Source: an uncultured Lachnospiraceae bacterium
GTDB taxonomy: Bacteria; Bacillota; Clostridia; Lachnospirales; Lachnospiraceae
NCBI GenBank assembly: GCA_910587095.1
Contig: CAJUMJ010000041.1
Span: 30,028-94,027, forward strand
Reading direction: 5' to 3'
DNA: 64,000 bases
Of this stretch, positions 31,463 through 48,350 are shown in pieces. A program made the translations under genes and the position numbers. The notes beneath the pieces were generated by a model that worked only from the letters and a program-made list of their open reading frames with translations, was not told where the DNA came from and searched no databases. The number at the start of each line of letters is the position of its first letter. The first letter of the stretch is position 1.

Positions 31463-32118
31463 TCCTGCACCTCTAAGCGGTATCCCACCTTGTACACCGC
31501 TACCAGATTATGCTCCCACCCCAGTTTTTTTCTAAGGCGCTGTACATGCAGATCCAATGTGCGGCTGTCCGCCAGGTATTCCCCTTCCCACACCTTCTCA
31601 TACAAGGTTTCCCGAAACAGGGCGACGTTCTTATTTTTCATAAAAAGAAGCAGAAGACCGAACTCTTTATTCGTCAGTTCCACGGGACGTCCCGCTTTCG
31701 TCACCCTGCGCGCGTCCACATCTACCGTCACGTCTCCCGCCACAAGATGCTGTTCCGCCTTGTTGTAACGTCTAAGCACCGCCTCCACCCTCGCCACCAG
31801 TTCCACCACTTCGAAAGGCTTCACCAGATAGTCGTCGGCGCCCAGTTTCAGTCCCTTCACCCTGTGCTTTACCTCATGCTTGGCAGTGATAAAAATCACC
31901 GGAATCCCCAAAGGCCGTATGTACTCCATCACGTCATATCCGTCCGCCCCCGGCAGCATAATATCCAGAAGAACCAGTTCAAACTCTTCCTTCTCTATCA
32001 GGTCAATCGCCTGCAGACCATCCTGCACCGCCGTACAGTGATACCCAGCGGAAGAAAGATTTAAGTCGATCAAATCACAGATCGGTTTCTCATCGTCTAC
32101 AATCAGTATCTTAATCAT
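31459..32118 (-). CDS. OmpR/PhoB-family response regulator
   Basis: The receiver domain has DD...D...K residues and the C-terminus is a winged helix (VYKVGYRL). Confidence 0.9.
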   Translation of the reverse strand: MIKILIVDDEKPICDLIDLNLSSAGYHCTAVQDGLQAIDLIEKEEFELVLLDIMLPGADGYDVMEYIRPLGIPVIFITAKHEVKHRVKGLKLGADDYLVKPFEVVELVARVEAVLRRYNKAEQHLVAGDVTVDVDARRVTKAGRPVELTNKEFGLLLLFMKNKNVALFRETLYEKVWEGEYLADSRTLDLHVQRLRKKLGWEHNLVAVYKVGYRLEVQE

Positions 32119-33220: not shown

Positions 33221-33268
33221 CTGTCGTACTCCTACACTGCATGCTCCCGTGTCAACGCCTTTCACGGA

Positions 33269-35164
33269 CTACTCTTTTTCAAACACCGCTTTAATGTAAA
33301 GCCCGTCCTCCGGGATTTCCAGTTCCAGCCATGTCTCATCGGTTTTCTCGATTCCCGCTCCCCGGTCTACTTCCCATCCCGCAAAGCGATACCCATCCTT
33401 GGCTAAAACCGACACCGTAATCGGATAATCCGTGAAATATTCACCGCTCCATTTTCCGTCTTCTCCGAAAGGAACCGCCCCGCTGTTTAAAACCACGCTT
33501 CCCGCCTCGTTCCCAGTCGTCTCGATCTCCACGGTCGAAAGCGTTCCCGACAGACCGAAGTGCTCCTTCACATACGGCGCGATACATGATTTGCGCCGTT
33601 TTAAAAATTCCCGGATGTTTGTCACTTCCTTGTACAGACGCTGTCCGTCCTCCCCGTAAAATCTGGCAAGATTTTTGTTCAGCGGTTCGCCCATCAGCTC
33701 GAGATAGGAGTCGATAAGCGGCTCCGTGTTTTCCTCCGAAAAAGTGATGTTGGCAAGATCCATCAGCGTGAGTGTAAAGTCCTTTTTAAACTCCTCGCTG
33801 CGGCACAGATTCGTAAAGCCTTCGCTGTGTTCCATCACCCATTTTATCGTGTCGGATTCCACCCTGTCATAAGAAAGGGAACTGGTATTGACGTCAAACA
33901 GCATCCATCTCCACCTGCCGTCCTCAAATCCGCCATCCTCAGACGGCTTCCTTGCCCGCCAAAACGCCTCGTTCGTCCCGGGCCAGTCGACGCAGCTCCC
34001 GATATATATTCCCGTGGCATAATAATCGAGATAACTTCGCACATCGATCAGATAATCAAGCTCTCTGTAATTGGCCGGATCCGTAAAGTCTGTGTCCTTC
34101 AGATGATTCGTTAAAAGAACATACAACGACCAGTCGTCTTCCCTTTCTTTTGTCAACCTGCTGTGCTTGATTGTGATAATATTGTCGTCATCCACACCAT
34201 AACGGTGTTCAATGTACGCATCCGTGTATCTCTCCGTGAGCCAGTAAACGCCCCAGTATTCCCCGTCCAGGAACATGACGCACGGTTTGTAATTCATAGT
34301 GGCAAACGCCTTGTCCTTCGTCAGTGTGGACACGAACATATCGCGGAATTTGGCCACCGCATCCTGCCCGCCCGCCGTCAAAGTAATCGTATCCGGCAAA
34401 TATCCCGTCCCGAACAAATCCACATAAAACCGGCTGGCCGGACCATATTCCTCCCTCGCGTAAAAATTCATACTTTTTGGAAGTCCGCTGCGGCTTGCGC
34501 CTCCCTGAACGCGGATTCCGCAGGATTGTTCCAGAACAGACTTCCGATCCGCGTCAAATAGCTGAATATCCGCGGGCCGCTCCCACGCAAAGCCATGCCG
34601 GCTGAAATTTGCGTTCTCTTCAAGTTCTTCATCATAGCCGTTGCCTAAAACGTAGATCCCCGTGTCCGGGGCAAACAGGTTTTCCGGGGAAGTGACGACG
34701 GACATGATCTGCATATTCCCGTAACCGGTCTTTTTGTCATATCCCACGAAATAGCTCGCTGTTTTTGCCTCGCCGACCTTTCCGTCCGCGTCCAGGTATG
34801 CCGCTCTAACAATGGTGCACTTGTCGACCGGATGATCGGGCAACCGGTAACCCATCATATCCCACATAGAGTTGACAGCAGTGTCAGTTCTCATGGAATG
34901 GACATTCGGATGCGAAGTGGCGTCCTCTATCAAGATGGGTTCCGTGTACAAAAGCGCATTTTCGTCCGGCCGGGAACCGTCCAGCGTATAATAGATTTTT
35001 GCCCCGAACGGCGCGTGCAGTTCCAGCAAAAAAGGCTCCTCGTAGAATCCCGATTCCCTGGAAAAAGTCAGCTCCCTGTAATCGTACCCGTCAAGCCACA
35101 AAAGGAGGACAAGCAAACCGCATATGGACAACAGGCAGGCTAAAGCGCTCCTTCGGCTCATCAT
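33269..35164 (-). CDS. CotH kinase-family protein, paralogue 2, secreted, with flanking Ig-like or carbohydrate-associated domains
   Basis: The core pattern MNYKPCVMFLDGEYWGVYWLTERY is typical of the CotH family. It has an N-terminal signal anchor. Its start overlaps the stop of the upstream DUF4956 gene (ATGA). Confidence 0.75.
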   Translation of the reverse strand: MMSRRSALACLLSICGLLVLLLWLDGYDYRELTFSRESGFYEEPFLLELHAPFGAKIYYTLDGSRPDENALLYTEPILIEDATSHPNVHSMRTDTAVNSMWDMMGYRLPDHPVDKCTIVRAAYLDADGKVGEAKTASYFVGYDKKTGYGNMQIMSVVTSPENLFAPDTGIYVLGNGYDEELEENANFSRHGFAWERPADIQLFDADRKSVLEQSCGIRVQGGASRSGLPKSMNFYAREEYGPASRFYVDLFGTGYLPDTITLTAGGQDAVAKFRDMFVSTLTKDKAFATMNYKPCVMFLDGEYWGVYWLTERYTDAYIEHRYGVDDDNIITIKHSRLTKEREDDWSLYVLLTNHLKDTDFTDPANYRELDYLIDVRSYLDYYATGIYIGSCVDWPGTNEAFWRARKPSEDGGFEDGRWRWMLFDVNTSSLSYDRVESDTIKWVMEHSEGFTNLCRSEEFKKDFTLTLMDLANITFSEENTEPLIDSYLELMGEPLNKNLARFYGEDGQRLYKEVTNIREFLKRRKSCIAPYVKEHFGLSGTLSTVEIETTGNEAGSVVLNSGAVPFGEDGKWSGEYFTDYPITVSVLAKDGYRFAGWEVDRGAGIEKTDETWLELEIPEDGLYIKAVFEKE

Positions 35165-35835
35165 CCTACCGTTTCTCCCGACTCGGCCACCCAGTTTACA
35201 GACTGTATGCCGGGCACGTTCATCAACTCATCTATCATGTCCGGGTTCAGCTCTCCCTTCGTCCTGATCTCATAAATCATCTCTTCATGGGCGGCGTCCC
35301 TGTTTCCCGTCCGTATCCGGCAGCTCACGACAAAAGGTTTCAAAACCTCCTCAAACCGTTTCCTGTCGACAGACGTCCCTTCGCCCGTCACAATCAGGAG
35401 ATATTTATTCCAAATGCCGGGTATCCTGCTGGACAGAATCAACACAGCCGCAATAAACAGCACAGTGGTAACACTCAGCCGGTAGTTGCGCGAGCTCACA
35501 CACAGCCCCTCCGCCATAGCCCAAAATATAAACATGGTGTCGCGGCTGTCCTTGACGGCAGTTCTGAAACGGACGATGGAAAGCGCGCCGACCATCCCGA
35601 GAGAGACTGCGATATTGCTGCTGATCATCATCATGACAATCACGGTAACCAAAAGCATGACCACCAGCGACCAGTTAAATTTTCTGTTGTACGCGATCTT
35701 TTCCGATGTGAGCCAGTAGGTCAGGTAAATGACCATCCCGACCGCCAGACCGCACGACATGATGACAAGCGTTTCCCTGATCCCATACTGTGTGCCGCTT
35801 GTGTAAAAATAATTCAGTACATCTTCTTTTGACAT
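35161..35835 (-). CDS. DUF4956-family integral membrane protein, paralogue 2
   Basis: Four TM helices, the signature LGMVGALSIVRFRTAVKDSRD and a ~85-aa soluble tail. Confidence 0.75.
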   Translation of the reverse strand: MSKEDVLNYFYTSGTQYGIRETLVIMSCGLAVGMVIYLTYWLTSEKIAYNRKFNWSLVVMLLVTVIVMMMISSNIAVSLGMVGALSIVRFRTAVKDSRDTMFIFWAMAEGLCVSSRNYRLSVTTVLFIAAVLILSSRIPGIWNKYLLIVTGEGTSVDRKRFEEVLKPFVVSCRIRTGNRDAAHEEMIYEIRTKGELNPDMIDELMNVPGIQSVNWVAESGETVG

Positions 35836-35840
35836 AACTA

Positions 35841-35983
35841 CTCCGTTCCTGAGCGTTTACGAGACGAGGCGACGTAAATCTCAAATTTACGTCTGCCATC
35901 AAACAAATTTGTGACGCCCGGCACAAATTTGAGTACGAAAAAACAGCGCATCAGCGTGATTTTTCGTACATTTCTCCGTTCCT
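35841..35983. mobile_element. MITE-like insertion: three perfect 9-10-bp hairpins flanked by the 10-bp direct repeat CTCCGTTCCT
   Basis: The direct repeats lie at 35841-35850 and 35974-35983. The hairpins lie at 35871-35893, 35904-35931 and 35933-35969. The paralogous intergenic gap in triad 1 is only 42 bp. Confidence 0.55.
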
Positions 35984-35990
35984 CAATACT

Positions 35991-36698
35991 TCAATAATTG
36001 AAATCGTAATATACAAAACGTCCGGCGCAATATTTACTGTAGGTTCCCTGAGTCAGGTGAAACCGCGCAAACAGGGCGGACAAAAAGCCCACCAGCTTTC
36101 CGCTGTATTTGACCTCCAAAACCACACTCTCCGGCATGACCGGCGTATAGTGCACGGCGGACGAAAACAGATCCATATTGGATTCCGTCGATCTGACATT
36201 CATATCCAAAGTGACACGCGTGTCATACATGGGATACCTGTACGCCAGCCGGTCATACGCAACCTGCACGGCGGGCCGATACTGCCCCTGTACCATAATG
36301 CCGTAGGCTTTGAGGCTCGTCGCGGACGTGTCAAAATAGTTTTTGAGCACACGGTACTCTCCGCGTGAAAGCGCTGCAGCGTCAGGCTGCGAGATGAGAA
36401 ACCCCTGCTTTTTCTGCCGGTCGTCGGTTTTCTGTTTGATTTCAAGCTTGCATAAGGAGGCGTTTCCGTTGTAAATCCGGAGACGTACCTTTTTCCTGTC
36501 CATCACGCCTGAAAGCTTCTGCGCAAAATCAATATTGTTTGGCGAATCAAAATAGAGACTGCTCACCAGGTAGGCTCCCCCGGCGCAATAGCCGTCCTTC
36601 TCAAGAAGCCTGTCCAGCTCTTCTCTGATCAGGAGCGCTTTCCCGAGCGGTATGACATATTTGATTTCTTTTCTGTATGAATAAAGCTCTTTGTCCAT
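35991..36698 (-). CDS. VTC-domain (triphosphate-tunnel, polyphosphate-polymerase-like) protein, paralogue 2
   Basis: 235 aa and soluble. It has an N-terminal RKEIKY strand (ExK) and alternating basic/acidic beta-strand motifs (KVRLRIY, KLEIKQK, VLEVKY) as in CYTH/TTM tunnels. Confidence 0.7.
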   Translation of the reverse strand: MDKELYSYRKEIKYVIPLGKALLIREELDRLLEKDGYCAGGAYLVSSLYFDSPNNIDFAQKLSGVMDRKKVRLRIYNGNASLCKLEIKQKTDDRQKKQGFLISQPDAAALSRGEYRVLKNYFDTSATSLKAYGIMVQGQYRPAVQVAYDRLAYRYPMYDTRVTLDMNVRSTESNMDLFSSAVHYTPVMPESVVLEVKYSGKLVGFLSALFARFHLTQGTYSKYCAGRFVYYDFNY

Positions 36699-36746: not shown

Positions 36747-36775
36747 ATTATAACATCGGCCTTTCCATTTTTCAA
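36747..36775 (-). promoter_or_regulatory. Strong sigma-A-type promoter in front of triad 2
   Basis: On the minus strand: TTGAAA, a 17-nt spacer, then TATAAT, about 50 nt upstream of the VTC-2 start. Confidence 0.6.
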
Positions 36776-36781
36776 CCGGCT

Positions 36782-37894
36782 TCACTCCCGCTCCTCCGGC
36801 CAAGCCCCCTCTGTAAGCGCCTCTGCCATTTTCTCCTCTTTCCATTCCAGGCTCTCTCTGTCAATCAGCTTTCGCTCCGCTCCCTCGTCCCACCAAAAAC
36901 ACGGGACGCCGATCCCGTTTGCCCGCTCCAGATAGTATTGCAGCCATTCCAGCCGTTCTTCCCCATTTTCCTTGTCCTCGCTGCCAAACTCCGTAATGAC
37001 CACCGGAATACGCCGTTTCACGTAGTTTTCCTGAAGCCATGCAAACAGCGTATCTATTTTCTCCGTGTCGCCTTTGTTGTCCGCGTCAAAAGTGCGGCTC
37101 CCGCCATCCCCCTCGCAAAAGGAATAGGGAATATACGCGTGAACCGACACGATAACATGTCCGTCTATATATTTGAGACTTTCCAGCGCCGCTGTCTCAT
37201 ACCGGTTCGCATACGGACAGATCAAAAGATATCTCTCCTCATTGGCTCCGCCCGTCCCGCGCACGCTGTCCACAAACACCTGGTTCAGACGATTCGTCAT
37301 ATCCCGCAGCTCCTTTGTCCCCTCCGTCCACTCGTATTCCGAATCCCGCAGTCTCGGCTCGTTCATCCCCTCGAACAAAAGACGCTCGTCGTATTCGGAA
37401 AACCGTTTCGCAATCTGCGTCCACACCTTGTCTAGCTTCCCGCCGATCTCCGCCTCCTTGTCCGTCTCCAGGTTCAGCCACATCTCATGGTGCGTATCCA
37501 GAATCACATACAGCTCCTCATGCAGAGCCATATCGACAACCTCCTGCACCCGATCCATCCATTCCGGCTCTATATTTCCCTCCGCATCCATATGCTCGTC
37601 CCACGTCACCGGTATCCGCACGCTCCGAAACCCGGCCTTTCTGATTTCGGAAAAGAGCTCTCCCGTGATCGGCGGATTGTTCCAGTAAGTTTCGTAATAC
37701 TCCGCCTGGGCGTTATCCCTGTGTTCCCGCACACCGGTGGCATCCAGACTGTTGCCGATATTTATGCCGTTCCCAAGATCCGCCGCAAACTGCATTCCCT
37801 CTTTCCCCCGATAATCCGCAAAGCAGAGCGTGCCGGCCAGTACGGCAAGTATAAGCCCGGCGGCCGCTCCCCCTATCCATATCCCTTTTTTCAC
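36782..37894 (-). CDS. Glycoside hydrolase family 5 endoglucanase (cellulase-like), membrane-anchored
   Basis: Both catalytic motifs are intact (GMNEP and VITEFG). It has an N-terminal TM helix. Its start overlaps the upstream stop by 4 nt. Confidence 0.85.
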   Translation of the reverse strand: MKKGIWIGGAAAGLILAVLAGTLCFADYRGKEGMQFAADLGNGINIGNSLDATGVREHRDNAQAEYYETYWNNPPITGELFSEIRKAGFRSVRIPVTWDEHMDAEGNIEPEWMDRVQEVVDMALHEELYVILDTHHEMWLNLETDKEAEIGGKLDKVWTQIAKRFSEYDERLLFEGMNEPRLRDSEYEWTEGTKELRDMTNRLNQVFVDSVRGTGGANEERYLLICPYANRYETAALESLKYIDGHVIVSVHAYIPYSFCEGDGGSRTFDADNKGDTEKIDTLFAWLQENYVKRRIPVVITEFGSEDKENGEERLEWLQYYLERANGIGVPCFWWDEGAERKLIDRESLEWKEEKMAEALTEGAWPEERE

Positions 37895-38796
37895 AAAAGC
37901 CCTCCGTCGCCACGCCCGGCTAAAAGCTCTGGCCGCCCTTGCCTTTTGGAAGCGCCTTCCTCATGCTCCTTCAGCAAGTTAAGCCGTTTTCCGTCGCTCT
38001 CAAACACCACATCTCCCTCACAGGAAAAAAGAAGTCTGCTCCCGCACCTTGCGCTGCTCTCCACAATCTCCTCATCCGCCGAGTCGGATGTCACAACCGC
38101 ATAGGCGGGGCGAAGCGTCTCAAACAGCTCCTCGGAGGCTTTGTTTGCCCTCCCGTGATGGGCGACCTTGTATAGTGCCACCTCCGGCAGGTTCATTGTC
38201 AAAAGCTCCTCGCTGCGTTTGCGCATCGCGTCCGCGCCAAAAAACATTTTCACTTTCCCATGCTCCGCCAGCACTGCCAGAGAATAGTTGTTCCCCTCTT
38301 TATAATGCTTTTCCTGCGGCGGATATACAAGCAGATTCACATATCCCGTATGGATTTTCCACACATGGTTCGGATAGTATATCTGGATTTTTTTGTCCCT
38401 GCAACAGGTTTCAACAGCCTTCCATTCTTCATTTTCCCCCGCATAACAGGAATAAATCACTTTCTTTACCGGAAATTCCCTCAGAACAGGAAGCGCCCCT
38501 CCTATATGGTCTTTGTCAGGATGCGTCAGAATAAGCGCGTCCAGCTCCTCAATCCCGGCTTCATTGAGCTCCCGCATCACATGTTCGATGTCCTGCGCCT
38601 CTCCCGTATCAATCATCACCGCGTTTTTGTCCTGGCTTAAAATAATACAGTCCGCGTCTTCCTTTGTCTGCAAAATGCGGACTTGCAAATCCGCGCTGTC
38701 TCCCCCGGGATCAAATGTGCCGCCTGCTGCCAGATAAGCAAGCCCCAATATGCCAATCAACGCGATCCACGCACAAACCACCGCTGCTTTTCTCAT
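37891..38796 (-). CDS. MBL-fold metallo-hydrolase (ComEC C-terminal-domain-like), membrane-anchored
   Basis: ILTHPDKDHIGG motif (HxHxDH) and an N-terminal TM helix. Confidence 0.75.
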   Translation of the reverse strand: MRKAAVVCAWIALIGILGLAYLAAGGTFDPGGDSADLQVRILQTKEDADCIILSQDKNAVMIDTGEAQDIEHVMRELNEAGIEELDALILTHPDKDHIGGALPVLREFPVKKVIYSCYAGENEEWKAVETCCRDKKIQIYYPNHVWKIHTGYVNLLVYPPQEKHYKEGNNYSLAVLAEHGKVKMFFGADAMRKRSEELLTMNLPEVALYKVAHHGRANKASEELFETLRPAYAVVTSDSADEEIVESSARCGSRLLFSCEGDVVFESDGKRLNLLKEHEEGASKRQGRPELLAGRGDGGLL

Positions 38797-40023
38797 TCAA
38801 TCCCCCTGATTTTCAAAATACGCAAACGCCCTGTCTGCGACATTATAAGGATACACTTCTATAAAGAGATAATCATACTCCCCCTCCCTTATCATCTCCT
38901 CATAGTCAAGCCCGTTACGGTCGGACCTCGCCCACACCATATCAATCTGACTGCACATCGGCGCCAAAAAGCAGGCGACCGGAGACATATAGGAATCTCT
39001 CAGACACAGCACCCTTGGCCCCTCGGGATTGTCCTCGTTCACGATGCGATCCTGATTCACGACGCCCTCCAGATAAATAGAACTTCCCGGATTCGAATAC
39101 GCGTCCGCCCTGCTGCTCTCCAGATCGACAAAGACGTCATAAAAGCTGCCCGCTTTTCTCTCGCCGCTCTCCAGGTCATACCATTTCATGTGCGTCTCAA
39201 ATTTGGGGTACAGCACCGTATAATCCTCTTTTCCGGCATACGCCAGCCCCGTCTCTCTGCCGATCGCCCCAATCGTCCCCTGCCTGTACGTATCCGCCGT
39301 ATAATTTGCCCTGTCAAGGTAGTAGTCTTCCGGATCCCAGTCATCGCCGAAATCCTTCCGTATCTTATCCGCTAACGCCCCGGCGGCGATAAACGCAGCC
39401 TCGGACGTCCAGGAATGATCCGTGCGGTAAAACATCTCCTCATGCGTCATGCCGGATTCCGTCAAGGCCGTCCGCAAGTCAAGCGTAGCGACCTGATTCT
39501 GCTGCATGTACAAAAGAAGTTCATCCTGCATGGCGTTTGGATCGTTCACGGGAAGTTCCCTGTCTTCTCCCATAACGCCGTACAGCACTTTGGAAGGCGG
39601 CATGATAAATATGGTTTTTGCCCCCTGCCTGCCGGCACACCGCGCCGCCCTGCCGGTCCTTACGGCGTATTCCATCAGACTGTCGTTTTCGTTCGCCATA
39701 ACGGCGCCGTAATAGAGCATATCGTTTCCGCCTCTCACAAACGAAAAATTGCGATATTCCCGCTTGTCCATAAGCCTCTGCGCTACGCCGTACACTTCCA
39801 CGGACAAATCGCCCGCCGCACTCTCTTCCAGTTCCTCCAAAAGCTCCTTTCGCAATTCGCCCCATAGCTCTTTTGCCTGTTCATAGCCGGAAGCCTCCGT
39901 AAGTCCCTTCCCGAAATCCGCAAAGGCTTTCTGTCCGTGATAAATGCCATATCCGAAAAAGGCAAAAAGCCCTGCCAGAAAACAGAACAGAAATACATAT
40001 TTTTTCCCGAAAAACGCTTTCAT
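38797..40023 (-). CDS. DHHW-family (AlgX/AlgJ-like) extracytoplasmic protein, probable O-acyl transfer partner of the MBOAT
   Basis: RTDHSW motif (a DHHW variant) and an N-terminal TM helix. Start set at MKAFFGK (GGGAGG RBS). Confidence 0.7.
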   Translation of the reverse strand: MKAFFGKKYVFLFCFLAGLFAFFGYGIYHGQKAFADFGKGLTEASGYEQAKELWGELRKELLEELEESAAGDLSVEVYGVAQRLMDKREYRNFSFVRGGNDMLYYGAVMANENDSLMEYAVRTGRAARCAGRQGAKTIFIMPPSKVLYGVMGEDRELPVNDPNAMQDELLLYMQQNQVATLDLRTALTESGMTHEEMFYRTDHSWTSEAAFIAAGALADKIRKDFGDDWDPEDYYLDRANYTADTYRQGTIGAIGRETGLAYAGKEDYTVLYPKFETHMKWYDLESGERKAGSFYDVFVDLESSRADAYSNPGSSIYLEGVVNQDRIVNEDNPEGPRVLCLRDSYMSPVACFLAPMCSQIDMVWARSDRNGLDYEEMIREGEYDYLFIEVYPYNVADRAFAYFENQGD

Positions 40024-40051
40024 CGTATCCTCCCGGCCAAAGCTCACATCT

Positions 40052-41443
40052 TTAATACAGCGAATACAGGAACGGTTTCCCGACTCCCTGCATCAGATAG
40101 CCAAGCGACAACAGTAACACGGCCGCCATCACAACCGGATAGCAAAGTGTAACGGCCACCCTGCCCACACGCCCGTTTTTTCCGTTCACAAGCCAGTTGT
40201 TCGCTTTCTTCGCAACAGGCGTGCACAAAAGGCATCCTATAGCCAGGTACGGCCAATATTCTAAAAGCAGTATTCCTGTCATGCCGTTCCAAATACTGTT
40301 ATAGTTCGCGCCGAACATATTCATATAGAACTGGCCGGCCTGGTACAAATCCTGTGCCCTGAAAACAACCCACCCCACAACGACAACCGACAAAGTATAT
40401 ATTCTCATAAGCGCAGTGTGCGGATTATTCTCCCCGTATCCGAGAAAAAGCTCCGCAAGAATAAACAGAAACTGCCACAGACACCAGAGAAAAAACTTAC
40501 CTCCCACACCGTACCACATGCCTATGACAAGCCACATCAAAAACAAGTTCCGCACGGTCTTGTCCATGTTGTCCTTCTTGCCGCCGAGCGGTTCAAACAC
40601 GTACCGCTGAAACCAGTTCATCAGCGAGATATAAAACCTTTCCCAAAAATCGCTGACCGAAACAGCCCTATAAGGATAGTTTACATTTTCCTCCATGATA
40701 ATGCCGAACATAAGACTCAGCCCGATCGCCATATCCGCGTACCCCGAAATGTCAAAATATATTTGCAGCGTAAACGCGAACAGGCCAAGCCACGCCATGA
40801 CCACAGGGACCGTCACGTTCTCCCTCCCCATGGCGGAATAATTGAAAACGATGTCCGCAAGCTGCGCGAGCGTATCCGCCAGAATTACCTTCTTTGAAAG
40901 CCCCGTCACAAACCGGCAGCACCCGACCGCACTGCGGCGCAAAGTCAGCTTCTGTCCTCCCATCTGCGCCGTAAATTCCTCAAACCCCACCGCAGGGCCG
41001 GCAAGAAGCTTTGGAAAATAGAAGAGATACAAACCGAGCGTAAAAGGATTTTTCGCCGTCGTTGTCCGCCCGGCGTACACATCCGACAAGTAGGAAATAC
41101 CCGAAAGCATCACAAAGGAAAGCCCCACGGGTAAAAATTCCCCCTGCTCATACATATACTTAAAAAACAGCACGGGAAGCAGGTTACCGACGACTCCGAT
41201 AATCAGAATAACATTTACCCTCCCCCCTGTTTTCCGGCTTTTAAACAACATTCCGAATATCCAGTCCCATAGCAGCAACACCAAAACGACAACAAAACCT
41301 GTCGGCGCGCCAAGCGCGTAGAAAAAAAGGCTGGTCAGAAAAAGCCATATTCTCTGCATGGTTTTGCTGAAAAAGAACAGATAATATCCCAGAAGCGCAG
41401 CAGGGAAAAAGAATACCAAAAAGTCCATACTTATAAACGACAT
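40052..41443 (-). CDS. MBOAT-family membrane O-acyltransferase (AlgI/DltB-like)
   Basis: About 10 TM helices and a typical MBOAT layout. Start set at MSFISM. Confidence 0.85.
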   Translation of the reverse strand: MSFISMDFLVFFFPAALLGYYLFFFSKTMQRIWLFLTSLFFYALGAPTGFVVVLVLLLWDWIFGMLFKSRKTGGRVNVILIIGVVGNLLPVLFFKYMYEQGEFLPVGLSFVMLSGISYLSDVYAGRTTTAKNPFTLGLYLFYFPKLLAGPAVGFEEFTAQMGGQKLTLRRSAVGCCRFVTGLSKKVILADTLAQLADIVFNYSAMGRENVTVPVVMAWLGLFAFTLQIYFDISGYADMAIGLSLMFGIIMEENVNYPYRAVSVSDFWERFYISLMNWFQRYVFEPLGGKKDNMDKTVRNLFLMWLVIGMWYGVGGKFFLWCLWQFLFILAELFLGYGENNPHTALMRIYTLSVVVVGWVVFRAQDLYQAGQFYMNMFGANYNSIWNGMTGILLLEYWPYLAIGCLLCTPVAKKANNWLVNGKNGRVGRVAVTLCYPVVMAAVLLLSLGYLMQGVGKPFLYSLY

Positions 41444-41453
41444 ACCTTCCCCC

Positions 41454-43043
41454 CTACCTTCTGGCAATATAGTACAGCGGAATCAAAAACACACAGGCGA
41501 CCAGAAACAGCCAAACCTCATGTCTGTTCATAATCCCGGTTGTAAATTCCGCGCTCTTGTGCAAAACGGAAAGCTGACCCGGAATTTCATCTCCATGCTT
41601 TCTGAGCGCCGTTTTCATGCGGTAAAGCTCGTCCTCGTAGGTTTTCGCCTCCCTCACGAGCACCGTCCCGTCTTTGAGCTTATAGTTTTCCAGATTATAT
41701 TCCGTATCCTGTGTATAAATATGTCCCCAGCGATACCATTCCCGCTCCCTTGCTCCTCCCAAATGCGCCGTGATTTCCTCGATCTTACCGATGATATGTT
41801 CCTCGGAAAAGGTACTTCTCCTCAGCTCGAAATAACGCTTTTCCAGCTTTGTGATAAACGTATTGTCTCTGCAAAGCTGCTCAAACCACGGCTTTGTCTG
41901 GAATCCCAGCGCATCCGTATCAAGCGGCTCATGCTTATAATTGTCAATCGTGCCGTCATAATCCCATGCCGGCCCCATGGTGAGCTTTCCGCCCCGCTCC
42001 TTAAAAAAATAAGTGGAAAAATTTCCGCTGTCATAGCTTCCGAAAAACTCGTTGAGCAGAAAATAATTTACGAAGGAATCCACATCTATGAGATTCTCAT
42101 AAGTCGAAAATTCCAGCAGATCGTTCGAATACAGCACCTTCTCCAGCCGGCTTAAGTCATCCTCGACGTAGGCCACCGCATCCTCGCTCACTTCGTCGTC
42201 AGACGGATAAAGCAGACCAAACCACTCCGCCGCAAGCCCATGCTCCCGCGCGTAAGTGTTTAACATCAGCCCCTCCTCGTCGTATCTGTCGCGCCTTACG
42301 AGATAGCTGTTAAACACATCCCCCGTTTTGTACTTGCTGATATTAACCCGATCCTCCCCCTGCCTGATACTTTCCCCGAGCAGGAAAACGCCCTGGTAGG
42401 TGTATCGCCCGTCCACACCAAGAATCACCTCGCAGTACTTGTTGTCTGGTGTGTAAGGCATGATCTCGGACGCGATACTGTAGACAAGATAATTGCGCAG
42501 CATACTTTTATCCGCCATACTGCCGTTCAAAATCCACTCGTGCTCCTCCCCCATTCCAAGAATATCCAGATCCCTGTACTGTCCCGATTCGGATACGAGT
42601 TTCACCATATACTGCGCCTTTTCATAGAGCATCGAGGAGTTTCCTCTTCTCTTGATCCGCATACGGCTCACCACGCAAGGATCGTCGCCCAAGCTGTTGT
42701 CCCCTTCCCCGGATGCATACAGATAGACGGTTCCGTCCACATAAGGTTCAACGCCCTCTATCGGAATAAACCTCCCGTCCTCCGGATTCTGACGGGTGGA
42801 AATGGGCGGCTCCTCCTCCATCTCAAGCACTACCACCGGCAGGTGCGACTTGAAATTCTCATTCACCGTAAAATCCTCATTAATGCCCGCAAGCGGATCC
42901 TTCTCCCGGATGGCGGCCTCAAGCTTTGTGGCGTAGCTGTCTCTTACGGTGTTCTTATGCAGTTCACGATAGCCTGCCGCAGCCGCCAGGCAAAATGCCA
43001 GGCCGAGCAGACAGGCCAGCAGTCCCTTCCATCGGTATCCCAT
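41454..43043 (-). CDS. CotH kinase-family protein, paralogue 1, extracytoplasmic between an N-terminal anchor and a C-terminal TM helix
   Basis: CotH core pattern (CEVILGVDGRYTYQGVFLLGE...). N-terminal LLACLLGLAFCLAAAAG and C-terminal VWLFLVACVFLIPLYYIA helices. Confidence 0.75.
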   Translation of the reverse strand: MGYRWKGLLACLLGLAFCLAAAAGYRELHKNTVRDSYATKLEAAIREKDPLAGINEDFTVNENFKSHLPVVVLEMEEEPPISTRQNPEDGRFIPIEGVEPYVDGTVYLYASGEGDNSLGDDPCVVSRMRIKRRGNSSMLYEKAQYMVKLVSESGQYRDLDILGMGEEHEWILNGSMADKSMLRNYLVYSIASEIMPYTPDNKYCEVILGVDGRYTYQGVFLLGESIRQGEDRVNISKYKTGDVFNSYLVRRDRYDEEGLMLNTYAREHGLAAEWFGLLYPSDDEVSEDAVAYVEDDLSRLEKVLYSNDLLEFSTYENLIDVDSFVNYFLLNEFFGSYDSGNFSTYFFKERGGKLTMGPAWDYDGTIDNYKHEPLDTDALGFQTKPWFEQLCRDNTFITKLEKRYFELRRSTFSEEHIIGKIEEITAHLGGAREREWYRWGHIYTQDTEYNLENYKLKDGTVLVREAKTYEDELYRMKTALRKHGDEIPGQLSVLHKSAEFTTGIMNRHEVWLFLVACVFLIPLYYIARR

Positions 43044-43058
43044 CACAGCCGCCCCTTT

Positions 43059-43736
43059 TTATCTGTTAATCTCATCGTTTTGACACACCAGATTGACCGC
43101 GGTTACCAGCTTGGATTTATAGAAGTAATCGGGAATATTCCCCTGCTTTTTTGCCTTGGTTATCATTTTTTCGGAAAGTTCATAAATATACTCCGCGTTT
43201 TCCTGCGTGGAATTGTCTACACGCAGTCTCGCCTTACCGGCAAACTTGCTCTCCACAAGCCTTTCCACCTCCGCGGCATTTTCCTGGCCGCATCGGATAA
43301 TCAGCAAATACCTCTCGTTACTCTTCACAGCGCCGAACAGCACGAGCACAAGAAATATGACAGCCGTCCCGACGCCCGCCATCACATACTCCGTGACGCC
43401 GCAGCAGATTCCAACCGCGATTCCCCAAAAAATATAAGCCGTGTCCCTCGGATCCTTGATCGCGGTTCTGAAACGCACAATGGAAAGCGCCCCGACCATA
43501 CCAAGAGAGAGCGCGATATTATTTCCGATCACATTCATAACAAGAGTAGTCACAAGCGTGAGCATTAATAGCGAAACATTGAAGCGCGCGCTGTAAGCGG
43601 CCCCCGAATGTGAAATCCGGTACGACAGATAGATCACTGCCCCCAGCACCACCGCCACCAGGAAATTCAGTACCATATCCTCCAGTGTGAGCGCCCCTGT
43701 ATTTGCCGCAAAGTAATTCATCAACTGTTCTTTCAT
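43059..43736 (-). CDS. DUF4956-family integral membrane protein, paralogue 1
   Basis: LGMVGALSIVRFRTAIKDPRD signature, four TM helices and a soluble C-terminal tail. Confidence 0.75.
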   Translation of the reverse strand: MKEQLMNYFAANTGALTLEDMVLNFLVAVVLGAVIYLSYRISHSGAAYSARFNVSLLMLTLVTTLVMNVIGNNIALSLGMVGALSIVRFRTAIKDPRDTAYIFWGIAVGICCGVTEYVMAGVGTAVIFLVLVLFGAVKSNERYLLIIRCGQENAAEVERLVESKFAGKARLRVDNSTQENAEYIYELSEKMITKAKKQGNIPDYFYKSKLVTAVNLVCQNDEINR

Positions 43737-43778
43737 GATCTTATCCCCTCTCTTCTCCGAGCCGTTATCTGCCGTCCT

Positions 43779-44483
43779 TTATTCGTTTCCTCTCATGCCG
43801 ACGCCCCGCGCCATACAGTATTTGCTCGCCGAAACCTGCGGCTGTCCGTGAAGCGACAGGAGGTCACGCACGTAGCTCAACAAAAAATGATTGAATTTCA
43901 CTTCCAGCGTAGTGACGCCACGTTGCGCAACCGGATATGTCATAAGCTTTTCCGAAAACAGATCCATATTGCTCTCCGTGGCCCTGATGTCCGCGTCAAG
44001 CGTAATGCGGATATCGTTTTCAGGCACAACCCACGCCGCCCTGTCGTACTCCACGATACAGCGGGGACGGTAGGCGTTCTCCTGCATCCTGATATACATT
44101 TCCAGGGCAAACTCCTCCTCCCGCTGCAAGAGGCACATGTAATCCCCTTCCATCAGTTTCCTGGCCTCGTCCCTCGACACGGACAGCGACCGCTTTCTCT
44201 GGAAATCACCCGTCTTTTCTTTCAACTCAAGCTTAGCGCTCTCCGCCTTTGGATCATATACCCTGAGCCGGATTTTTCTTCTTTCCCCGATTCCGTCCGA
44301 CTTTTCACGAAAGTCAGCGTCGTCCGGCGTGTCGTAATACAGCGAGCGCACCAGATACCCTCCGCCGTCCCTGCCATGTATATCCTCACGCAAAGCCATC
44401 CCCAGTCTGCCTCGCATCCTTTCCGTCTGTTCCGTATACAGCAAATATTTCTTTTCCTGTCTGAGTACGTCTAAAATTTCCAA
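43779..44483 (-). CDS. VTC-domain (polyphosphate-polymerase-like TTM) protein, paralogue 1
   Basis: TTG start after GGGAGG. It has an RQEKKY N-terminal strand and KIRLRVY, KLELKEK and TLEVKF tunnel-strand motifs. No signal peptide. Confidence 0.7.
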   Translation of the reverse strand: MEILDVLRQEKKYLLYTEQTERMRGRLGMALREDIHGRDGGGYLVRSLYYDTPDDADFREKSDGIGERRKIRLRVYDPKAESAKLELKEKTGDFQRKRSLSVSRDEARKLMEGDYMCLLQREEEFALEMYIRMQENAYRPRCIVEYDRAAWVVPENDIRITLDADIRATESNMDLFSEKLMTYPVAQRGVTTLEVKFNHFLLSYVRDLLSLHGQPQVSASKYCMARGVGMRGNE

Positions 44484-44514: not shown

Positions 44515-46872
44515 CTAAGTCAGCCATTCCATCTCGTTAAACTCGCCCTTTACCTGCCTTGCCGGCGCGCTCTTCCGCGGCCGCGCCAACCGCTCACGCT
44601 CCTCAAATCCGGCCGACATGTAAACAAGCCATGCAAGCAGTTCTTCTCTCTTTTGGCGGTCGCTCAATATTTCTTTATAGTTCGCCACGTTATACAAACG
44701 CATTCCCTTCCTGACCTCAGTCTCATATTCGCATTGTAAGACAATGTCGTCGCTGATATTTACCTGCAACTGCTCCGGGACATCCTCATCCAGCAATGTG
44801 ATGCAGACATAATTGAAATCAAACACCTTTACCTTTTCTTCCTGACAGCCCGTACATGGCACCTCCGCGTCGATCATCACACGAGGATAGTTCCTTTTCT
44901 GGTAAAAAGGCGGCGTCACTCTCTTTTTCAAATTCAGCTTTAAGTCCTCAAAACTTCCGCTGTCACGCTTGATTTCCATGGGAAGCGTAGGGATCCTGTC
45001 ATACAAAATCCCGAGAAGGTCATCATAGCTGCCGTTCAAATCCAGAATTTTAAGGGAGTAATTCCACTGATCACCCCTCTGGCTCACATGGACAACCGTC
45101 CCGAACATATCCACATGATAGTCTTCGTTTTCCAGAATTACTTCCACTTCGGTATCCTTATCAAAGAAATAAGGTTTGGGAAGAACGAGTGCAATTCCCT
45201 CCTCGGAGGCGTCCTTTGTATAGCCCTCATACTCCTCCCCCATATATCTGACCTTGCAGGGCATCTGCACCATAATTCGTTCAGACTTGCGGTAAGGCAC
45301 CCGCCCGTCCACAAAAAATAAGGACATCACCAGAAGGAACAGATTATAAACCAGCCAGAACAGCACCACAACCGGGCCGAAGGATCCGCTGCGCAGCATG
45401 ATCATAACACAGCGCGCAATGCCGATCACGGACAGGACAATCAAAAGCAGAAACGGAATCGTATAGATAAAGTTCCTCCCCTTCTCGTTTTTCTGCTCAC
45501 CCTTGCTGGTCACCTTGAATTTCTTCATGGTAATTCCCACCGTCTCAAGCATCACCGGAATAAGCATATACGGGAAGATCACCGTCTCATAGATGCTGGT
45601 CCATTTCGTGGACCTTATATTTTTACTCAGCATCCGCAAGCTGATATCGCTGCTCACATACATCGGCAGCCAGAATACAAGCACCTGCAATAGCGTACAT
45701 TTAAACACCATAAAGTCAAAGGTCGCGTACAAAATAGGAGACATGATATAAATCAGACGCTTAAGCGGCGCGTACCAGTACCAGACAGACGCCCAATAGT
45801 TCATTTTCTGGGCAAAGGTCAGCTTCGAGCCGAGAAGAATGTGCATTTTTCTTCCGGTCGCGATAACCCCTCTCGCCCATCTGACTCTCTGTTGTATCAA
45901 ATCCTTCAAATCCTGCGGCGAAAGACCGGAGGCCAGCGGCTCCGCCGTTCCAAGGCTCACATACTGCTCCTTCTCAAGAAGAAGACCCGTCGCAAAATCC
46001 TCCGTGATCGCCTCGGTGTAAAATCCTCCGATACTCTCAAGCGCCTCTCTGCGCAGAACCGTATTTGATCCGCCGTAGATCACACTGTTGGTTTTGGTGC
46101 GCGCCACCTGAATATCCTTGTAAAAATAGTCCTGCTCGTTCGGTATCCTCTGTTCGGAATACAGATTAAACTGAAACAGGTCCAAATTGTAAAAGCTCTG
46201 CGGAGACTGTAAAAATCCCAGCTTAACCTTATCTTCCTCTTTCTTGCCGCGGTTCTTTAAGTCGCACTCAACAAAATAAGGTATCGTGCGCATCAGAAAA
46301 TTACTTCTCGGTATCATATCCGCGTCAAATGTGACGACATAAGGCGAATCGGAATGCGCCAGCGCATTGTTCAGATTTCCCGCTTTCGCCCCCTTATGAT
46401 CCTCGCGGTCAAGATAATTAACTCCCAGCCGGTGCGCCAGCTCCTTCATCTCGGCCCTGTGCCCGTCGTCGCAGAGATAGATATGCACCTTATTCTTGTC
46501 CGGGTACTTCATGCGCGTACAACCGTGAACCGTCTTGTAAAGCAAGTCCACCGGTTCACTGTAAGTCGCGATAAAAATATCCACATCCGGGAATTGATCC
46601 GGCGGTAAATTTTTTGGAAAAGGATAGTTTTCCACCGAATACATATTGACAAAATGAATAAACGCCTCCACCATACCAAGGATCTCCACCACAAGCAGAG
46701 AGACGCCCGCCACAACAGACACGGTTCCGTACTCAAAAGGAATCGTAAAGAAAATTCTCCACACCAAATACAAAATGGTAAAATACATGTTTAAGGCAAA
46801 CCATATTTTACCCTTCCAGTCACGAAAGAAAGCTTTGACGAGTCCGCCTAATGTTTCCCCCTCACTCTCCAT
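44515..46872 (-). CDS. Processive GT2 beta-glycan synthase, BcsA-like, with C-terminal PilZ
   Basis: FDADMIP, TEDFATG and QQRVRWARG (QxxRW) motifs with multiple TM helices. The PilZ motifs are RKSER (45277-45291) and DASEEG (45196-45213). Confidence 0.85.
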   Translation of the reverse strand: MESEGETLGGLVKAFFRDWKGKIWFALNMYFTILYLVWRIFFTIPFEYGTVSVVAGVSLLVVEILGMVEAFIHFVNMYSVENYPFPKNLPPDQFPDVDIFIATYSEPVDLLYKTVHGCTRMKYPDKNKVHIYLCDDGHRAEMKELAHRLGVNYLDREDHKGAKAGNLNNALAHSDSPYVVTFDADMIPRSNFLMRTIPYFVECDLKNRGKKEEDKVKLGFLQSPQSFYNLDLFQFNLYSEQRIPNEQDYFYKDIQVARTKTNSVIYGGSNTVLRREALESIGGFYTEAITEDFATGLLLEKEQYVSLGTAEPLASGLSPQDLKDLIQQRVRWARGVIATGRKMHILLGSKLTFAQKMNYWASVWYWYAPLKRLIYIMSPILYATFDFMVFKCTLLQVLVFWLPMYVSSDISLRMLSKNIRSTKWTSIYETVIFPYMLIPVMLETVGITMKKFKVTSKGEQKNEKGRNFIYTIPFLLLIVLSVIGIARCVMIMLRSGSFGPVVVLFWLVYNLFLLVMSLFFVDGRVPYRKSERIMVQMPCKVRYMGEEYEGYTKDASEEGIALVLPKPYFFDKDTEVEVILENEDYHVDMFGTVVHVSQRGDQWNYSLKILDLNGSYDDLLGILYDRIPTLPMEIKRDSGSFEDLKLNLKKRVTPPFYQKRNYPRVMIDAEVPCTGCQEEKVKVFDFNYVCITLLDEDVPEQLQVNISDDIVLQCEYETEVRKGMRLYNVANYKEILSDRQKREELLAWLVYMSAGFEERERLARPRKSAPARQVKGEFNEMEWLT

Positions 46873-46895: not shown

Positions 46896-48251
46896 TCAGT
46901 CCTTCCTCTTAGATGCCCTGCCCGCAAGAAAGATACCAATCCCGGCAATCGCCACCGTCACGCCGTGGACGAACCTTCTCTCCCGCCTCGCATACTCTTT
47001 CCCGGAAATCCTTTTTCCGGCTTCCGGCTTTTTCTTTGCTCTCCGCCGCTTCGTATCCGTCCCCTGAGCGGCTACGGCTACCGTATTTTCCGGTTTTTTA
47101 TACTTCTCGACCGCCTCACCGGCTACCTGGGTATATCTCGCGGCCGCCAAAGCAGCCAGACCTGTATCCAACTGTCCCGACTGCTTCTCTGCCATAACGT
47201 CCTCTTTCATTTTCCTCACAAAAAGAGCGTCCTCTATAAGCTCGTCCTCCTGCTCCAGTTTCCTGAAAATCAAATACCTGATTCCGCCGCTCTCCTTCTC
47301 AGGCACCTTATCCATCATCGCCACGGGTTTCAGATGCATTTCTGCCACCGGCACGATTGTGGGTTCAGGTTCCGGCACCGGCGTCTCCTCCTCCATCACC
47401 GCCGCAGGGCTCAGATCCATTTCGGCCACCGCCACGATTGCGGGTTCAGGTTCCGGTAAAATCTCAAGCCCTGCTTCCGGTTCAAGTTCGGACATGGGCG
47501 CAACTGCCTCCGCCGCTTCTTCAGCTTCAGGCAACGTCTCAGGTTCCGGTTCAGGTTCCGGCAAAATCTCAAGCCCCGCTTCCGGTTCAAGTTCGGACAT
47601 GAGCGCAACTGGCTCTGCCGCTTCCTCCGCTTCAGGCAACGTCTCAGATTCCGCTTCCGGTTCAGGTTCCGGCAAAATCTCAAGCCCTGCTTCCGGTTCA
47701 AGTTCGGACATGGGCGCAACTGCCTCCACTGCAGCCCCCGTTTCCCCTGTCTCAAATTTGGGAAGCGGCATTTTGAGCAGATCATTGTAGCATTTGAACC
47801 GCACCACCTTTTTCCTGTTAAAATACTGAAAAACAAGACCCCCTGTCAGACATACCGCCGAGAGCACAACCGCCGTAACCGCGTCCCGCCATATAAAATG
47901 ATAGACCGTAAGCCCCAAAATCACCGCACCAAGCGGAGCAGCCAAAAGATAAACGTGTTTTCCGAGTGCATTTCTAATCCGCAGCTTATCGAGAAAATAT
48001 ACGAAAATAATATCCAGAAAGTACAAAAGAACCAAGCCGAACAAAGTGAGCGAGACTGTCAGAAACATTCTGGCCGCCAAATTCGCCGTCATCGGCTCCA
48101 CCAGCAGATAACTCAAATAACAGACTACCGTCCCGATTCCGAGAAACAGTATCGTCCTGAAATATTTATAACCCCAGAAGCAAAAGAGGGTCCCCACAAT
48201 CGTCAAAAGGATGACCCCCAAAAACACCAGTATTTCCTTGGAAAATATCAT
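46896..48251 (-). CDS. Polytopic membrane protein with an acidic P/E-rich tandem-repeat tail
   Basis: About 5 N-terminal TM helices, then three repeats of MSELEPEAGLEILPEPEPE...TLPEAEEAAE, then a C-terminal TM helix. Start set at MIFSKE (alternative GTG at 48320). Confidence 0.6.
   Translation of the reverse strand: MIFSKEILVFLGVILLTIVGTLFCFWGYKYFRTILFLGIGTVVCYLSYLLVEPMTANLAARMFLTVSLTLFGLVLLYFLDIIFVYFLDKLRIRNALGKHVYLLAAPLGAVILGLTVYHFIWRDAVTAVVLSAVCLTGGLVFQYFNRKKVVRFKCYNDLLKMPLPKFETGETGAAVEAVAPMSELEPEAGLEILPEPEPEAESETLPEAEEAAEPVALMSELEPEAGLEILPEPEPEPETLPEAEEAAEAVAPMSELEPEAGLEILPEPEPAIVAVAEMDLSPAAVMEEETPVPEPEPTIVPVAEMHLKPVAMMDKVPEKESGGIRYLIFRKLEQEDELIEDALFVRKMKEDVMAEKQSGQLDTGLAALAAARYTQVAGEAVEKYKKPENTVAVAAQGTDTKRRRAKKKPEAGKRISGKEYARRERRFVHGVTVAIAGIGIFLAGRASKRKD
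47337..47730. repeat. In-frame tandem DNA repeats (period 111-117 bp, about 2.6 copies, preceded by a 78-82-bp-period pair)
   Basis: The near-identical unit ggttccggcaaaatctcaagccc.gcttccggttcaagttcggacatg.gcgcaactg was read three times. Confidence 0.8.
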
Positions 48252-48350
48252 TTGCCCCTGCCATTTGGGCACATGCAACACAAACTTGTCCAATGGAGTC
48301 CCCCTTTGCCAGACCCGCACCTGTGCGATGTAGATATCTATTTTGTTAAA

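Follow-up and report, generated by a model that had tools for sequence, protein, structure and literature searches.

We analyzed a 64,000-nt stretch of contig CAJUMJ010000041.1 (GenBank assembly GCA_910587095.1), from an uncultured Lachnospiraceae bacterium, that carries two copies of a three-gene cassette encoding a VTC-domain protein, a DUF4956 membrane protein, and a CotH-family protein. The whole stretch is referred to below as the window, and coordinates are window positions unless a locus is named; open reading frames (ORFs) in the window were assigned to families with Pfam and NCBIfam profiles. The first triad lies on the minus strand in the order VTC1, DUF4956_1, CotH1:

43779–44483, minus strand: VTC1, soluble TTM/VTC-domain protein, 234 aa (Pfam VTC, PF09359, E = 3e-38)
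43059–43736, minus strand: DUF4956_1, predicted MgtC-like membrane protein, 225 aa (Pfam DUF4956, PF16316, E = 4e-13)
41454–43046, minus strand: CotH1, CotH-family kinase domain, 530 aa (Pfam CotH, PF08757, E = 6.5e-51)

The two gaps are 42 nt and 12 nt long; if the ATG one codon downstream is taken as the start of CotH1, as in public gene calls, the protein has 529 aa and the second gap is 15 nt, in agreement with the 42 and ~15 nt given for these three consecutive genes in the first-pass annotation of this DNA. The VTC, DUF4956, and CotH assignments proposed there were likewise confirmed by the Pfam matches listed above; NCBIfam offers no model for these three proteins. Five kilobases downstream of the first triad (5 kb; 33269–36698, minus strand), we found a second, divergent triad that the first-pass annotation had not described:

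35991–36698, minus strand: VTC2, VTC-domain protein, 235 aa (Pfam VTC, E = 1.7e-32; 38% identical to VTC1)
35161–35835, minus strand: DUF4956_2, predicted MgtC-like membrane protein (Pfam DUF4956, E = 1e-10; 35% identical to DUF4956_1)
33269–35164, minus strand: CotH2, secreted or anchored, 631 aa (Pfam CotH, E = 1.3e-33; 21% identical to CotH1)

The same double-triad locus is present in independent metagenome assemblies, and this recurrence, together with the low identity between the triads (21%–38%), rules out chance adjacency or a duplication artifact. Identities of this order point to old paralogs or separate acquisitions rather than to a recent duplication. The isoleucyl-tRNA synthetase encoded in the window belongs to a cluster at 90% identity in which every named member comes from a Lachnospiraceae metagenome-assembled genome. 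CotH2 has an N-terminal hydrophobic segment (residues 6–24) and carries additional Fn3-associated, CHB_HEX_C-like, and InlB B-repeat-like domains.

Conservation of the three-gene order

To place the triads in a broader context, a one-genome-per-species collection was scanned with the DUF4956 motif; at least 600 stretches matched, and 80 loci (numbered with the prefix L) were fetched. ORFs were called in the fetched loci and searched with hidden Markov models (HMMs) built from homolog alignments, and 76 loci were analyzable. A strictly collinear VTC>DUF4956>CotH order is seen in 61 of the 76, all from different species, a recurrence beyond chance that supports the first-pass reading of a linked trio. 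Most of the other loci have contig ends, gene-calling interruptions, or a CotH gene located upstream of VTC, and Pfam resolves one apparent pair (L083) into a true triad. The genes are closely packed, with median gaps of 16 nt between VTC and DUF4956 (n = 70) and 14 nt between DUF4956 and CotH (n = 62) and with many 4-nt overlaps.

Every triad context sampled is a polysaccharide locus. The commonest, which we call NELoc-2-type after a Clostridium perfringens locus considered below, accounts for 36 of the 76 loci (the triad is strict in 32); here, CotH is followed by a ~690–725-aa protein, a HEAT-repeat protein, a chitin-synthase-like GT2 protein, and often a GGDEF-EAL protein, an arrangement that looks like an undescribed synthase-dependent exopolysaccharide (EPS) system. 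The ~690–725-aa protein (L011, L018–L062, e.g., L026:12204–14381, and L088:8270–10339) is N-terminally anchored and has no Pfam match. Fifteen loci are of the Ccs type, resembling the clostridial cellulose locus ccsABZHI, and 14 of these contain a strict triad. Blautia schinkii and Clostridium lacusfryxellense share the gene order VTC-DUF4956-CotH-small ORF-MBOAT-AlgX-MBL-CcsA-GH5 (where MBL stands for a metallo-beta-lactamase-fold protein), with GGDEF genes adjacent. The small ORF between CotH and MBOAT (58–66 aa; L001:12330–12530 in B. schinkii and L003:12335–12511 in C. lacusfryxellense) could encode a DltX/AlgF-like helper of the MBOAT/AlgX acetylation pair; the window, in which CotH1 and the MBOAT gene abut, lacks it.

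The remaining contexts contain GT8, UDP-glucose dehydrogenase, GT2, YdjC, or DHHW genes and include relatives of the second triad of the window. The latter represents a different subfamily, whose relatives (in L067, L070–L072, L079, and L080) accompany the first four of these gene types and often have an extra, highly divergent CotH-like gene right after DUF4956. The whole cassette, together with hypothetical, HEAT-repeat, and GT2 genes, is also found on a Planococcus maritimus plasmid (NZ_CP059541; L088, 5389–12824; Bacillales), and its plasmid-borne state indicates that the module is horizontally mobile. Besides the published Pel loci, polysaccharide loci of at least three kinds make use of the cassette: the Ccs type, the NELoc-2 type, and sugar-nucleotide/glycosyltransferase clusters.

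Properties of the three proteins

VTC1 and VTC2 score 132 and 113 bits against PF09359 (cutoff 23). The four strand motifs that the first-pass annotation quoted for a soluble 234-aa protein were all located in VTC1 (RQEKKY, residues 8–13; KIRLRVY, 70–76; KLELKEK, 84–90; TLEVKF, 192–197), which has no hydrophobic or transmembrane (TM) segment; the same holds for 63 of 64 triad VTC proteins. The VTC1 sequence alone gave no match in the Protein Data Bank (PDB) and the family profile was needed, which matches yeast Vtc4 (PDB: 3g3q) with E = 3e-6. When the Vtc4 fragment is aligned to the family HMM (hmmalign), Vtc4 R196, K200, R264, R266, and K281 map onto VTC1 R8, K12, R72, R74, and K88, and K294, Y359, R361, and R373 map onto K97, Y146, R148, and R159, with identical residues in both copies in the window; these nine tunnel residues are invariant in 64 species. 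We take R196, K200, K281, K294, Y359, R361, and R373 to be tunnel or catalytic positions of Vtc4, in what is presumably the numbering of Hothorn 2009. R264 and R266 are catalytic, and R264A/R266A/E426N is the standard inactive Vtc4 mutant (Guan 2023, PMC9911596). The Vtc4 alignment ended before E426 and S457/K458; VTC1 E194/K196 and (S220)/K221, invariant in the corresponding C-terminal strands, are candidate counterparts.

The bacterial proteins thus have the TTM/VTC catalytic domain and the tunnel residues of the eukaryotic VTC complex (Vtc4/Vtc3/Vtc1), which translocates polyphosphate along a basic path as the polymer is synthesized (Guan 2023, PMC9911596). They differ from it in that VTC1 and VTC2 (234 and 235 aa) contain no other Pfam domain and no TM segment, hence neither an SPX domain nor a covalently attached DUF202 channel; their putative partner in the membrane is MgtC-like and unrelated, and transport would be directed to the cell exterior instead of the vacuole. 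VTC is predicted to be cytosolic and resembles the Vtc4 polyphosphate polymerase; from the shared residues, we infer a corresponding polymerase activity.

For the second protein, the four TM segments described in the first-pass annotation are recovered by hydropathy, whereas the AlphaFold2 (AF2) model has five membrane helices. This model of DUF4956_1, which is of moderate confidence (predicted local distance difference test score [pLDDT] 71), shows helices at residues 18–42, 50–70, 72–92, 96–113, and 117–135, followed by a beta-alpha-beta-beta-alpha-alpha-beta domain at 143–218 for which the best Foldseek matches are the ACT-like C-terminal domains of MgtC proteins (PDB: 7qa5 and 2lqj; probability 1.0, E 1e-3 to 1e-2). 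Against Pfam MgtC, the protein scores 20.7 bits, under the 31.4-bit cutoff, and Pfam places it in DUF4956, a family of 6,420 clusters at 50% identity. The signature quoted in the first-pass annotation, ALSIVRFRTAIKDPRD, was located at residues 83–98 of DUF4956_1, and DUF4956_2 has the same core motif by alignment; S77–I86 (SLGMVGALSI), R88, R90, K94, and D98 are invariant in 76 species, and identity across Clostridia is 65%–75%. In the predicted structure, DUF4956 is an MgtC-like fold, sharing with MgtC/SapB a hydrophobic N-terminal domain with a conserved glycine-rich helix and a C-terminal ACT-like domain, but it forms a distinct family with its own invariant SLGMVGALSI-R-R-K motif and linkage to VTC. 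Five membrane helices and the positive-inside rule together predict an N-out/C-in topology, which would put the R88/R90/K94 ring at the cytoplasmic end of helix 3.

CotH1 and CotH2 score 174 and 117 bits against the Pfam CotH profile. CotH1 has TM segments at both ends (residues 8–26 and 510–528) and basic residues at both extreme termini, from which the 483-aa kinase domain is predicted to lie outside the membrane, the orientation that had been proposed in the first-pass annotation; an N-terminal hydrophobic segment is present in 63 of 63 triad CotH proteins, and a C-terminal TM segment in 19 of 63, nearly all of them at Ccs-type loci. Neither CotH1 alone nor a CotH1-centered profile gave a match when searched against the PDB, 5jd9 not being reached, and the link to Bacillus CotH was established through structure prediction with Foldseek and through more Bacillus-like homologs. 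The AF2 model of CotH1 (pLDDT 86, predicted TM-score [pTM] 0.84) has B. cereus CotH (PDB: 5jd9) as its top Foldseek match, with E = 5e-14 and a TM-score of 0.73; HipA and PI3K kinases are far behind.

When a short catalytic fragment of B. cereus CotH was aligned pairwise (Smith-Waterman) with CotH1 and CotH2, the register was shifted and unreliable; a profile alignment was used instead, in which B. cereus D224 and W246-D247 correspond to CotH1 D339 and W361-D362, with a weak score over a short fragment. The CotH1 aspartates are spaced 23 residues apart, as are D228 and D251 of B. subtilis CotH, in which D228Q and D251A are inactive (Nguyen 2016). D339 and D362 are invariant in the CotH family alignment and at least 90% conserved in 63 species, both Asp columns are kept in CotH2, and the N-lobe aligns with the Bacillus proteins by sequence (RGNSS, LNGS..D.S.LRN, and QGV.L..ES). 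Pfam family, fold, N-lobe motifs, and the spacing of the catalytic aspartates are thus common to CotH1 and the Bacillus CotH Ser/Thr kinase (PDB: 5JD9/5JDA), whereas identity is only ~16%, CotH1 is membrane anchored, extracytoplasmic, and encoded in an EPS operon while Bacillus CotH acts in the mother cell, and no CotB/CotG-type substrates are encoded near the triad. The data support a kinase fold with both catalytic aspartates and a location outside the membrane.

The host operon

The genes surrounding the two triads are the following:

46896–48320, minus strand: 474-aa membrane protein, first gene of the putative operon
44515–46872, minus strand: CcsA/BcsA-like processive GT2 synthase (Pfam GT2 families) with a C-terminal PilZ domain, a cyclic di-GMP (c-di-GMP) receptor (E = 4.6e-14)
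40052–41467, minus strand: MBOAT acyltransferase, CcsH/WssH/AlgI-like (Pfam MBOAT, E = 2e-25; DltB-like NCBIfam match under the cutoff)
38797–40047, minus strand: AlgX/SGNH-type O-acetyltransferase, CcsI/WssI-like (Pfam ALGX, E = 3.4e-13; N-terminal signal anchor, TM 12–30)
37891–38796, minus strand: extracytoplasmic MBL-fold protein (Pfam Lactamase_B, E = 2e-11; N-terminal TM)
36782–37894, minus strand: GH5 endoglucanase, CcsZ-like, membrane tethered (Pfam Cellulase, E = 8.8e-53)
36747–36775, minus strand: sigma-70-like promoter match in the gap between GH5 and VTC2 (11 of 12 positions, extended TG; consensus match only)
32111–33265, minus strand: 384-aa secreted or anchored protein with weak FG-GAP-like repeats (Pfam FG-GAP_3, E = 2e-6; TM 19–37)

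Together with the first triad, the genes from the 474-aa protein to GH5 form a single dense array on the minus strand, a Ccs-type acetyl-cellulose system under c-di-GMP control. Equivalents of CcsA (GT2 and PilZ), CcsZ (GH5), CcsH (MBOAT), and CcsI (AlgX/SGNH) of the clostridial ccsABZHI locus, for which CcsZ has been described (Scott 2020), are all present in the window, while the triad, the MBL-fold protein, and the 474-aa-type membrane protein are extra here, and the ccs paper makes no mention of the trio. Against the NCBIfam CelA model TIGR03030, the BcsA-like synthase gives E = 5e-119, which is under the equivalog cutoff. The placement of the triad between a BcsA-like synthase and MBOAT/DHHW genes, as first annotated, holds for the synthase and for MBOAT, the ORF of which overlaps the CotH1 stop codon by 14 nt (longest-ORF call), but the supposed DHHW gene is assigned to ALGX by Pfam, although a DHSW motif is present. 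CcsB is a protein of ~358 aa with two terminal TM helices around an outside domain (Scott 2020). No separate CcsB-like gene was recognized in the window or in L001/L003 in a comparison based on this description, and CotH1 is the only protein of the window locus with this topology.

The 474-aa protein, which has no match in Pfam or NCBIfam, consists of an N-terminal domain of ~185 aa with four to five TM segments, an acidic repeat region of ~280 aa (PEPE/ELEPEAGLEILPEPEPE; a 105-nt tandem repeat in 2.6 copies), and a C-terminal TM segment. Homologs of its N-terminal domain are encoded directly 5' of VTC in L009, L012, L014, L022, L027, and L028; in these six Ccs-type loci, they are stand-alone proteins of 176–187 aa. 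The 474-aa protein may be a fourth partner of the cassette, and its PEPE-rich repeat, which is predicted to face outward, is conceivable as a CotH substrate or as a cation or cellulose binder. The MBL-fold gene, placed between the acetyltransferase and GH5 genes, recurs in the triad-bearing Ccs loci L001, L008, L010, and L016; its product could be a hydrolase, a phosphodiesterase or phosphatase "eraser," or a polyphosphate trimmer.

Downstream of the second triad, the FG-GAP-like protein starts 3 nt after CotH2 and is directly followed, on the same strand, by a response-regulator and histidine-kinase pair (29924–32118, minus strand), which may regulate the locus. Scans of the region for promoters and terminators gave counts that were not above shuffled expectation.

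Relation to earlier work

The three families have been seen together before. A 2020 study described cotH, a poly-phosphate polymerase gene, DUF4956, and DUF4832 as accessory genes adjoining the pel operons of Gram-positive bacteria (Whitfield 2020, PMC7112168), and Streptococcus intermedius carries SIR_1594/1593/1592 at its pelDEADAFG locus (mBio 2025, PMC12345266). In the latter organism, deletion of CotH lowers and deletion of DUF4956 raises Pel, and either deletion abolishes more than 50% of the aggregation in sputum medium (PMC12345266). The tentative statement in the first-pass annotation that no member of the trio had been functionally characterized is therefore outdated. As in the window, the families at pel lie side by side on one strand, joined to an EPS operon of the synthase-dependent kind, with a CotH that is predicted to be secreted and a DUF4956 described as an MgtC-TM plus ACT domain protein. 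The differences are that the host operon here is of the BcsA/PilZ cellulose type (Ccs), without pelDEADAFG neighbors and with GH5 in place of the pel DUF4832 hydrolase; that the order is VTC-DUF4956-CotH; that CotH1 has an added C-terminal TM segment; and that there are two divergent copies. The authors of the 2025 study proposed a role in phosphate metabolism and reported finding no such synteny beyond pel (PMC12345266), a statement that is contradicted by the Ccs-type, NELoc-2-type, and Planococcus loci.

In C. perfringens NELoc-2, VTC-domain genes lie beside genes for ~225-aa membrane proteins annotated as "tubulin/FtsZ" (Lepp 2010, PMC2879425), which, judging from their size and position, are probably DUF4956 proteins. 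There, too, CotH, a ~685-aa hypothetical protein, a HEAT-repeat protein, and a chitin-synthase-like GT2 protein come after the VTC/membrane protein pair; in contrast to the window, the GT2 synthase is short and lacks PilZ, and there is no MBOAT/AlgX acetylation pair. The NELoc-2 paper lists the gene linkage without interpreting it (PMC2879425). The cassette itself is thus known, though biochemically uncharacterized; new here are its cellulose-synthase context, the two divergent copies in one locus, the bitopic CotH, and the additional conserved partners.

Discussion

A cytoplasmic enzyme predicted to form phosphoanhydrides, a small conserved membrane protein with a basic mouth on its cytoplasmic side, and an intact kinase on the outside are inherited as a unit next to various polysaccharide synthases, for which a surface phosphorylation module is the best explanation. 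We therefore favor, though at somewhat less than an even chance, the reading that EPS machines of the synthase-dependent kind have in the triad a portable accessory cassette that brings cytoplasmic phosphoryl groups to the cell surface, where material may be phosphorylated with no need for outside ATP. In such a scheme, the soluble VTC/TTM enzyme would build polyphosphate or a short oligophosphate from cytoplasmic ATP in its basic tunnel and would dock on the MgtC-like DUF4956 protein, the glycine-rich helix and R88/R90/K94 ring of which would take up the anion for passage through the membrane; this docking and transfer step is the weakest link. The anchored, outward-facing CotH would then move phosphate from this donor to a matrix target, with nascent cellulose or a surface protein as candidate acceptors; donor and acceptor alike are conjectural. 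The outcome would be an anionic, phosphorylated matrix with altered aggregation and polymer retention, and the second, divergent triad would serve another target in the same way. Acetylation by wss and the phosphoethanolamine cellulose made by BcsG provide a precedent for chemical change of cellulose outside the membrane.

A more far-reaching version, which we consider rather unlikely, holds that a bacterial VTC counterpart composed of the TTM polymerase and an MgtC-like conduit extrudes polyphosphate and that CotH ecto-kinases use this polymer, and not ATP, for the phosphorylation of nascent cellulose, other exopolysaccharides, or matrix proteins. Its corollary, of equally low likelihood, would be an unrecognized class of phospho-modified biofilm polymers and an ancestral, transport-type function for the MgtC superfamily.

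Several observations weigh against the phosphoryl-transfer reading. MgtC, the nearest known relative of DUF4956, is a regulatory protein and not a channel, and extracellular ATP is present around growing Gram-positive cells, so that an alternative donor is not strictly required. A relationship of DUF4956 to DUF202, the channel of the eukaryotic VTC complex, found no support, the protein being MgtC-like instead. Fusions of DUF4956 to VTC or CotH were not seen among the 150 best representatives (all 104–282 aa), a sample in which rarer fusions may be missed. Two of the 76 loci (L066 and L078) have a VTC-DUF4956 pair without CotH within the fetched flanks, and a Hymenobacter volaticus plasmid (L089, 7929–8597; Bacteroidota) carries DUF4956 without a detectable VTC or CotH neighbor and with a TolC-family gene downstream, which shows that DUF4956 is not obligatorily tied to the triad. 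Literature searches turned up no biochemical work on bacterial VTC or DUF4956 proteins or on CotH proteins other than those of spores. Finally, deletion of VTC in S. intermedius leaves cells like the wild type, with no aggregation phenotype (PMC12345266), which, together with the opposite effects of the DUF4956 and CotH deletions on Pel, is not what one expects of a simple linear pathway.

The same deletion data fit a regulatory module, in which CotH acts on matrix or synthase-associated proteins, either as an ecto-kinase that uses ATP or as an autokinase that is loaded prior to export, and VTC/DUF4956 is a separate unit on the cytoplasmic side that senses or tunes phosphate or energy status, through local polyphosphate or MgtC-like action on membrane proteins, and so gates polysaccharide output. 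The MgtC-like architecture of DUF4956 includes an ACT-like domain, a typical ligand-sensing fold, which speaks for this alternative; the F1Fo ATPase and PhoR are both targets of MgtC (as cited in PMC12345266), and GGDEF/EAL genes cluster around the cassettes. On the other hand, the tight collinearity, with median gaps of 14–16 nt, across most of the species sampled speaks for a single unit to which the outside kinase belongs, the basic ring and glycine-rich helix that are invariant in DUF4956 resemble a conduit or binding site more than a sensor, and no cytoplasmic partner is encoded. On balance, we regard a regulatory module as unlikely, though the likeliest of the rivals.

Polyphosphate could also be the product rather than the donor: VTC and DUF4956 would secrete an anionic matrix polyphosphate that CotH anchors, caps, binds, or transfers onto the glycan or cell wall. 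It is consistent with this idea that the residues shared with Vtc4 are those of a polymerase tunnel, the maker of long chains, that the cassettes always sit in matrix polysaccharide loci, and that the co-encoded MBL-fold hydrolase could trim such a polymer on the outside. CotH, however, keeps both catalytic aspartates of an active phosphotransferase, we know of no polyphosphate-binding or transfer activity for the CotH fold, and translocation is as conjectural here as in the phosphoryl-transfer scheme, all of which makes a secreted end product improbable in our view. Least probable of all is that bitopic CotH proteins like CotH1 are BcsB/CcsB-like extracytoplasmic subunits that guide or retain the glucan, with the kinase chemistry secondary or lost: the near-restriction of the C-terminal TM segment to Ccs-type loci, the failure to recognize a separate CcsB-like gene there, and the similar topology of CcsB would fit, but conservation of the catalytic Asp positions and of the RGNS motif in the N-lobe extends across the family, a C-terminal TM segment is missing from CotH2 and from the majority of triad CotH proteins, and the linkage to VTC and DUF4956 would be left unexplained.

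The cassette is widespread, occurring in gut, rumen, and pathogenic Firmicutes, plus a plasmid, and its host loci make biofilm polysaccharides, with some of these loci tied to virulence (pel of the Streptococcus milleri group and C. perfringens NELoc-2); culturable carriers in which the proposal can be tested exist, e.g., B. schinkii DSM 10518 (L001 and L016). Even without a mechanism, the cassette emerges as a general add-on of several synthase systems that is not specific to pel, which corrects the current literature. If phosphoryl groups are indeed moved to the surface as proposed, this would explain where bacterial kinases outside the membrane obtain their phosphoryl donor, would provide a bacterial route for polyphosphate export and a transport-type function for the MgtC superfamily, and would make phosphorylation one more of the chemical modifications known for bacterial cellulose and Pel.

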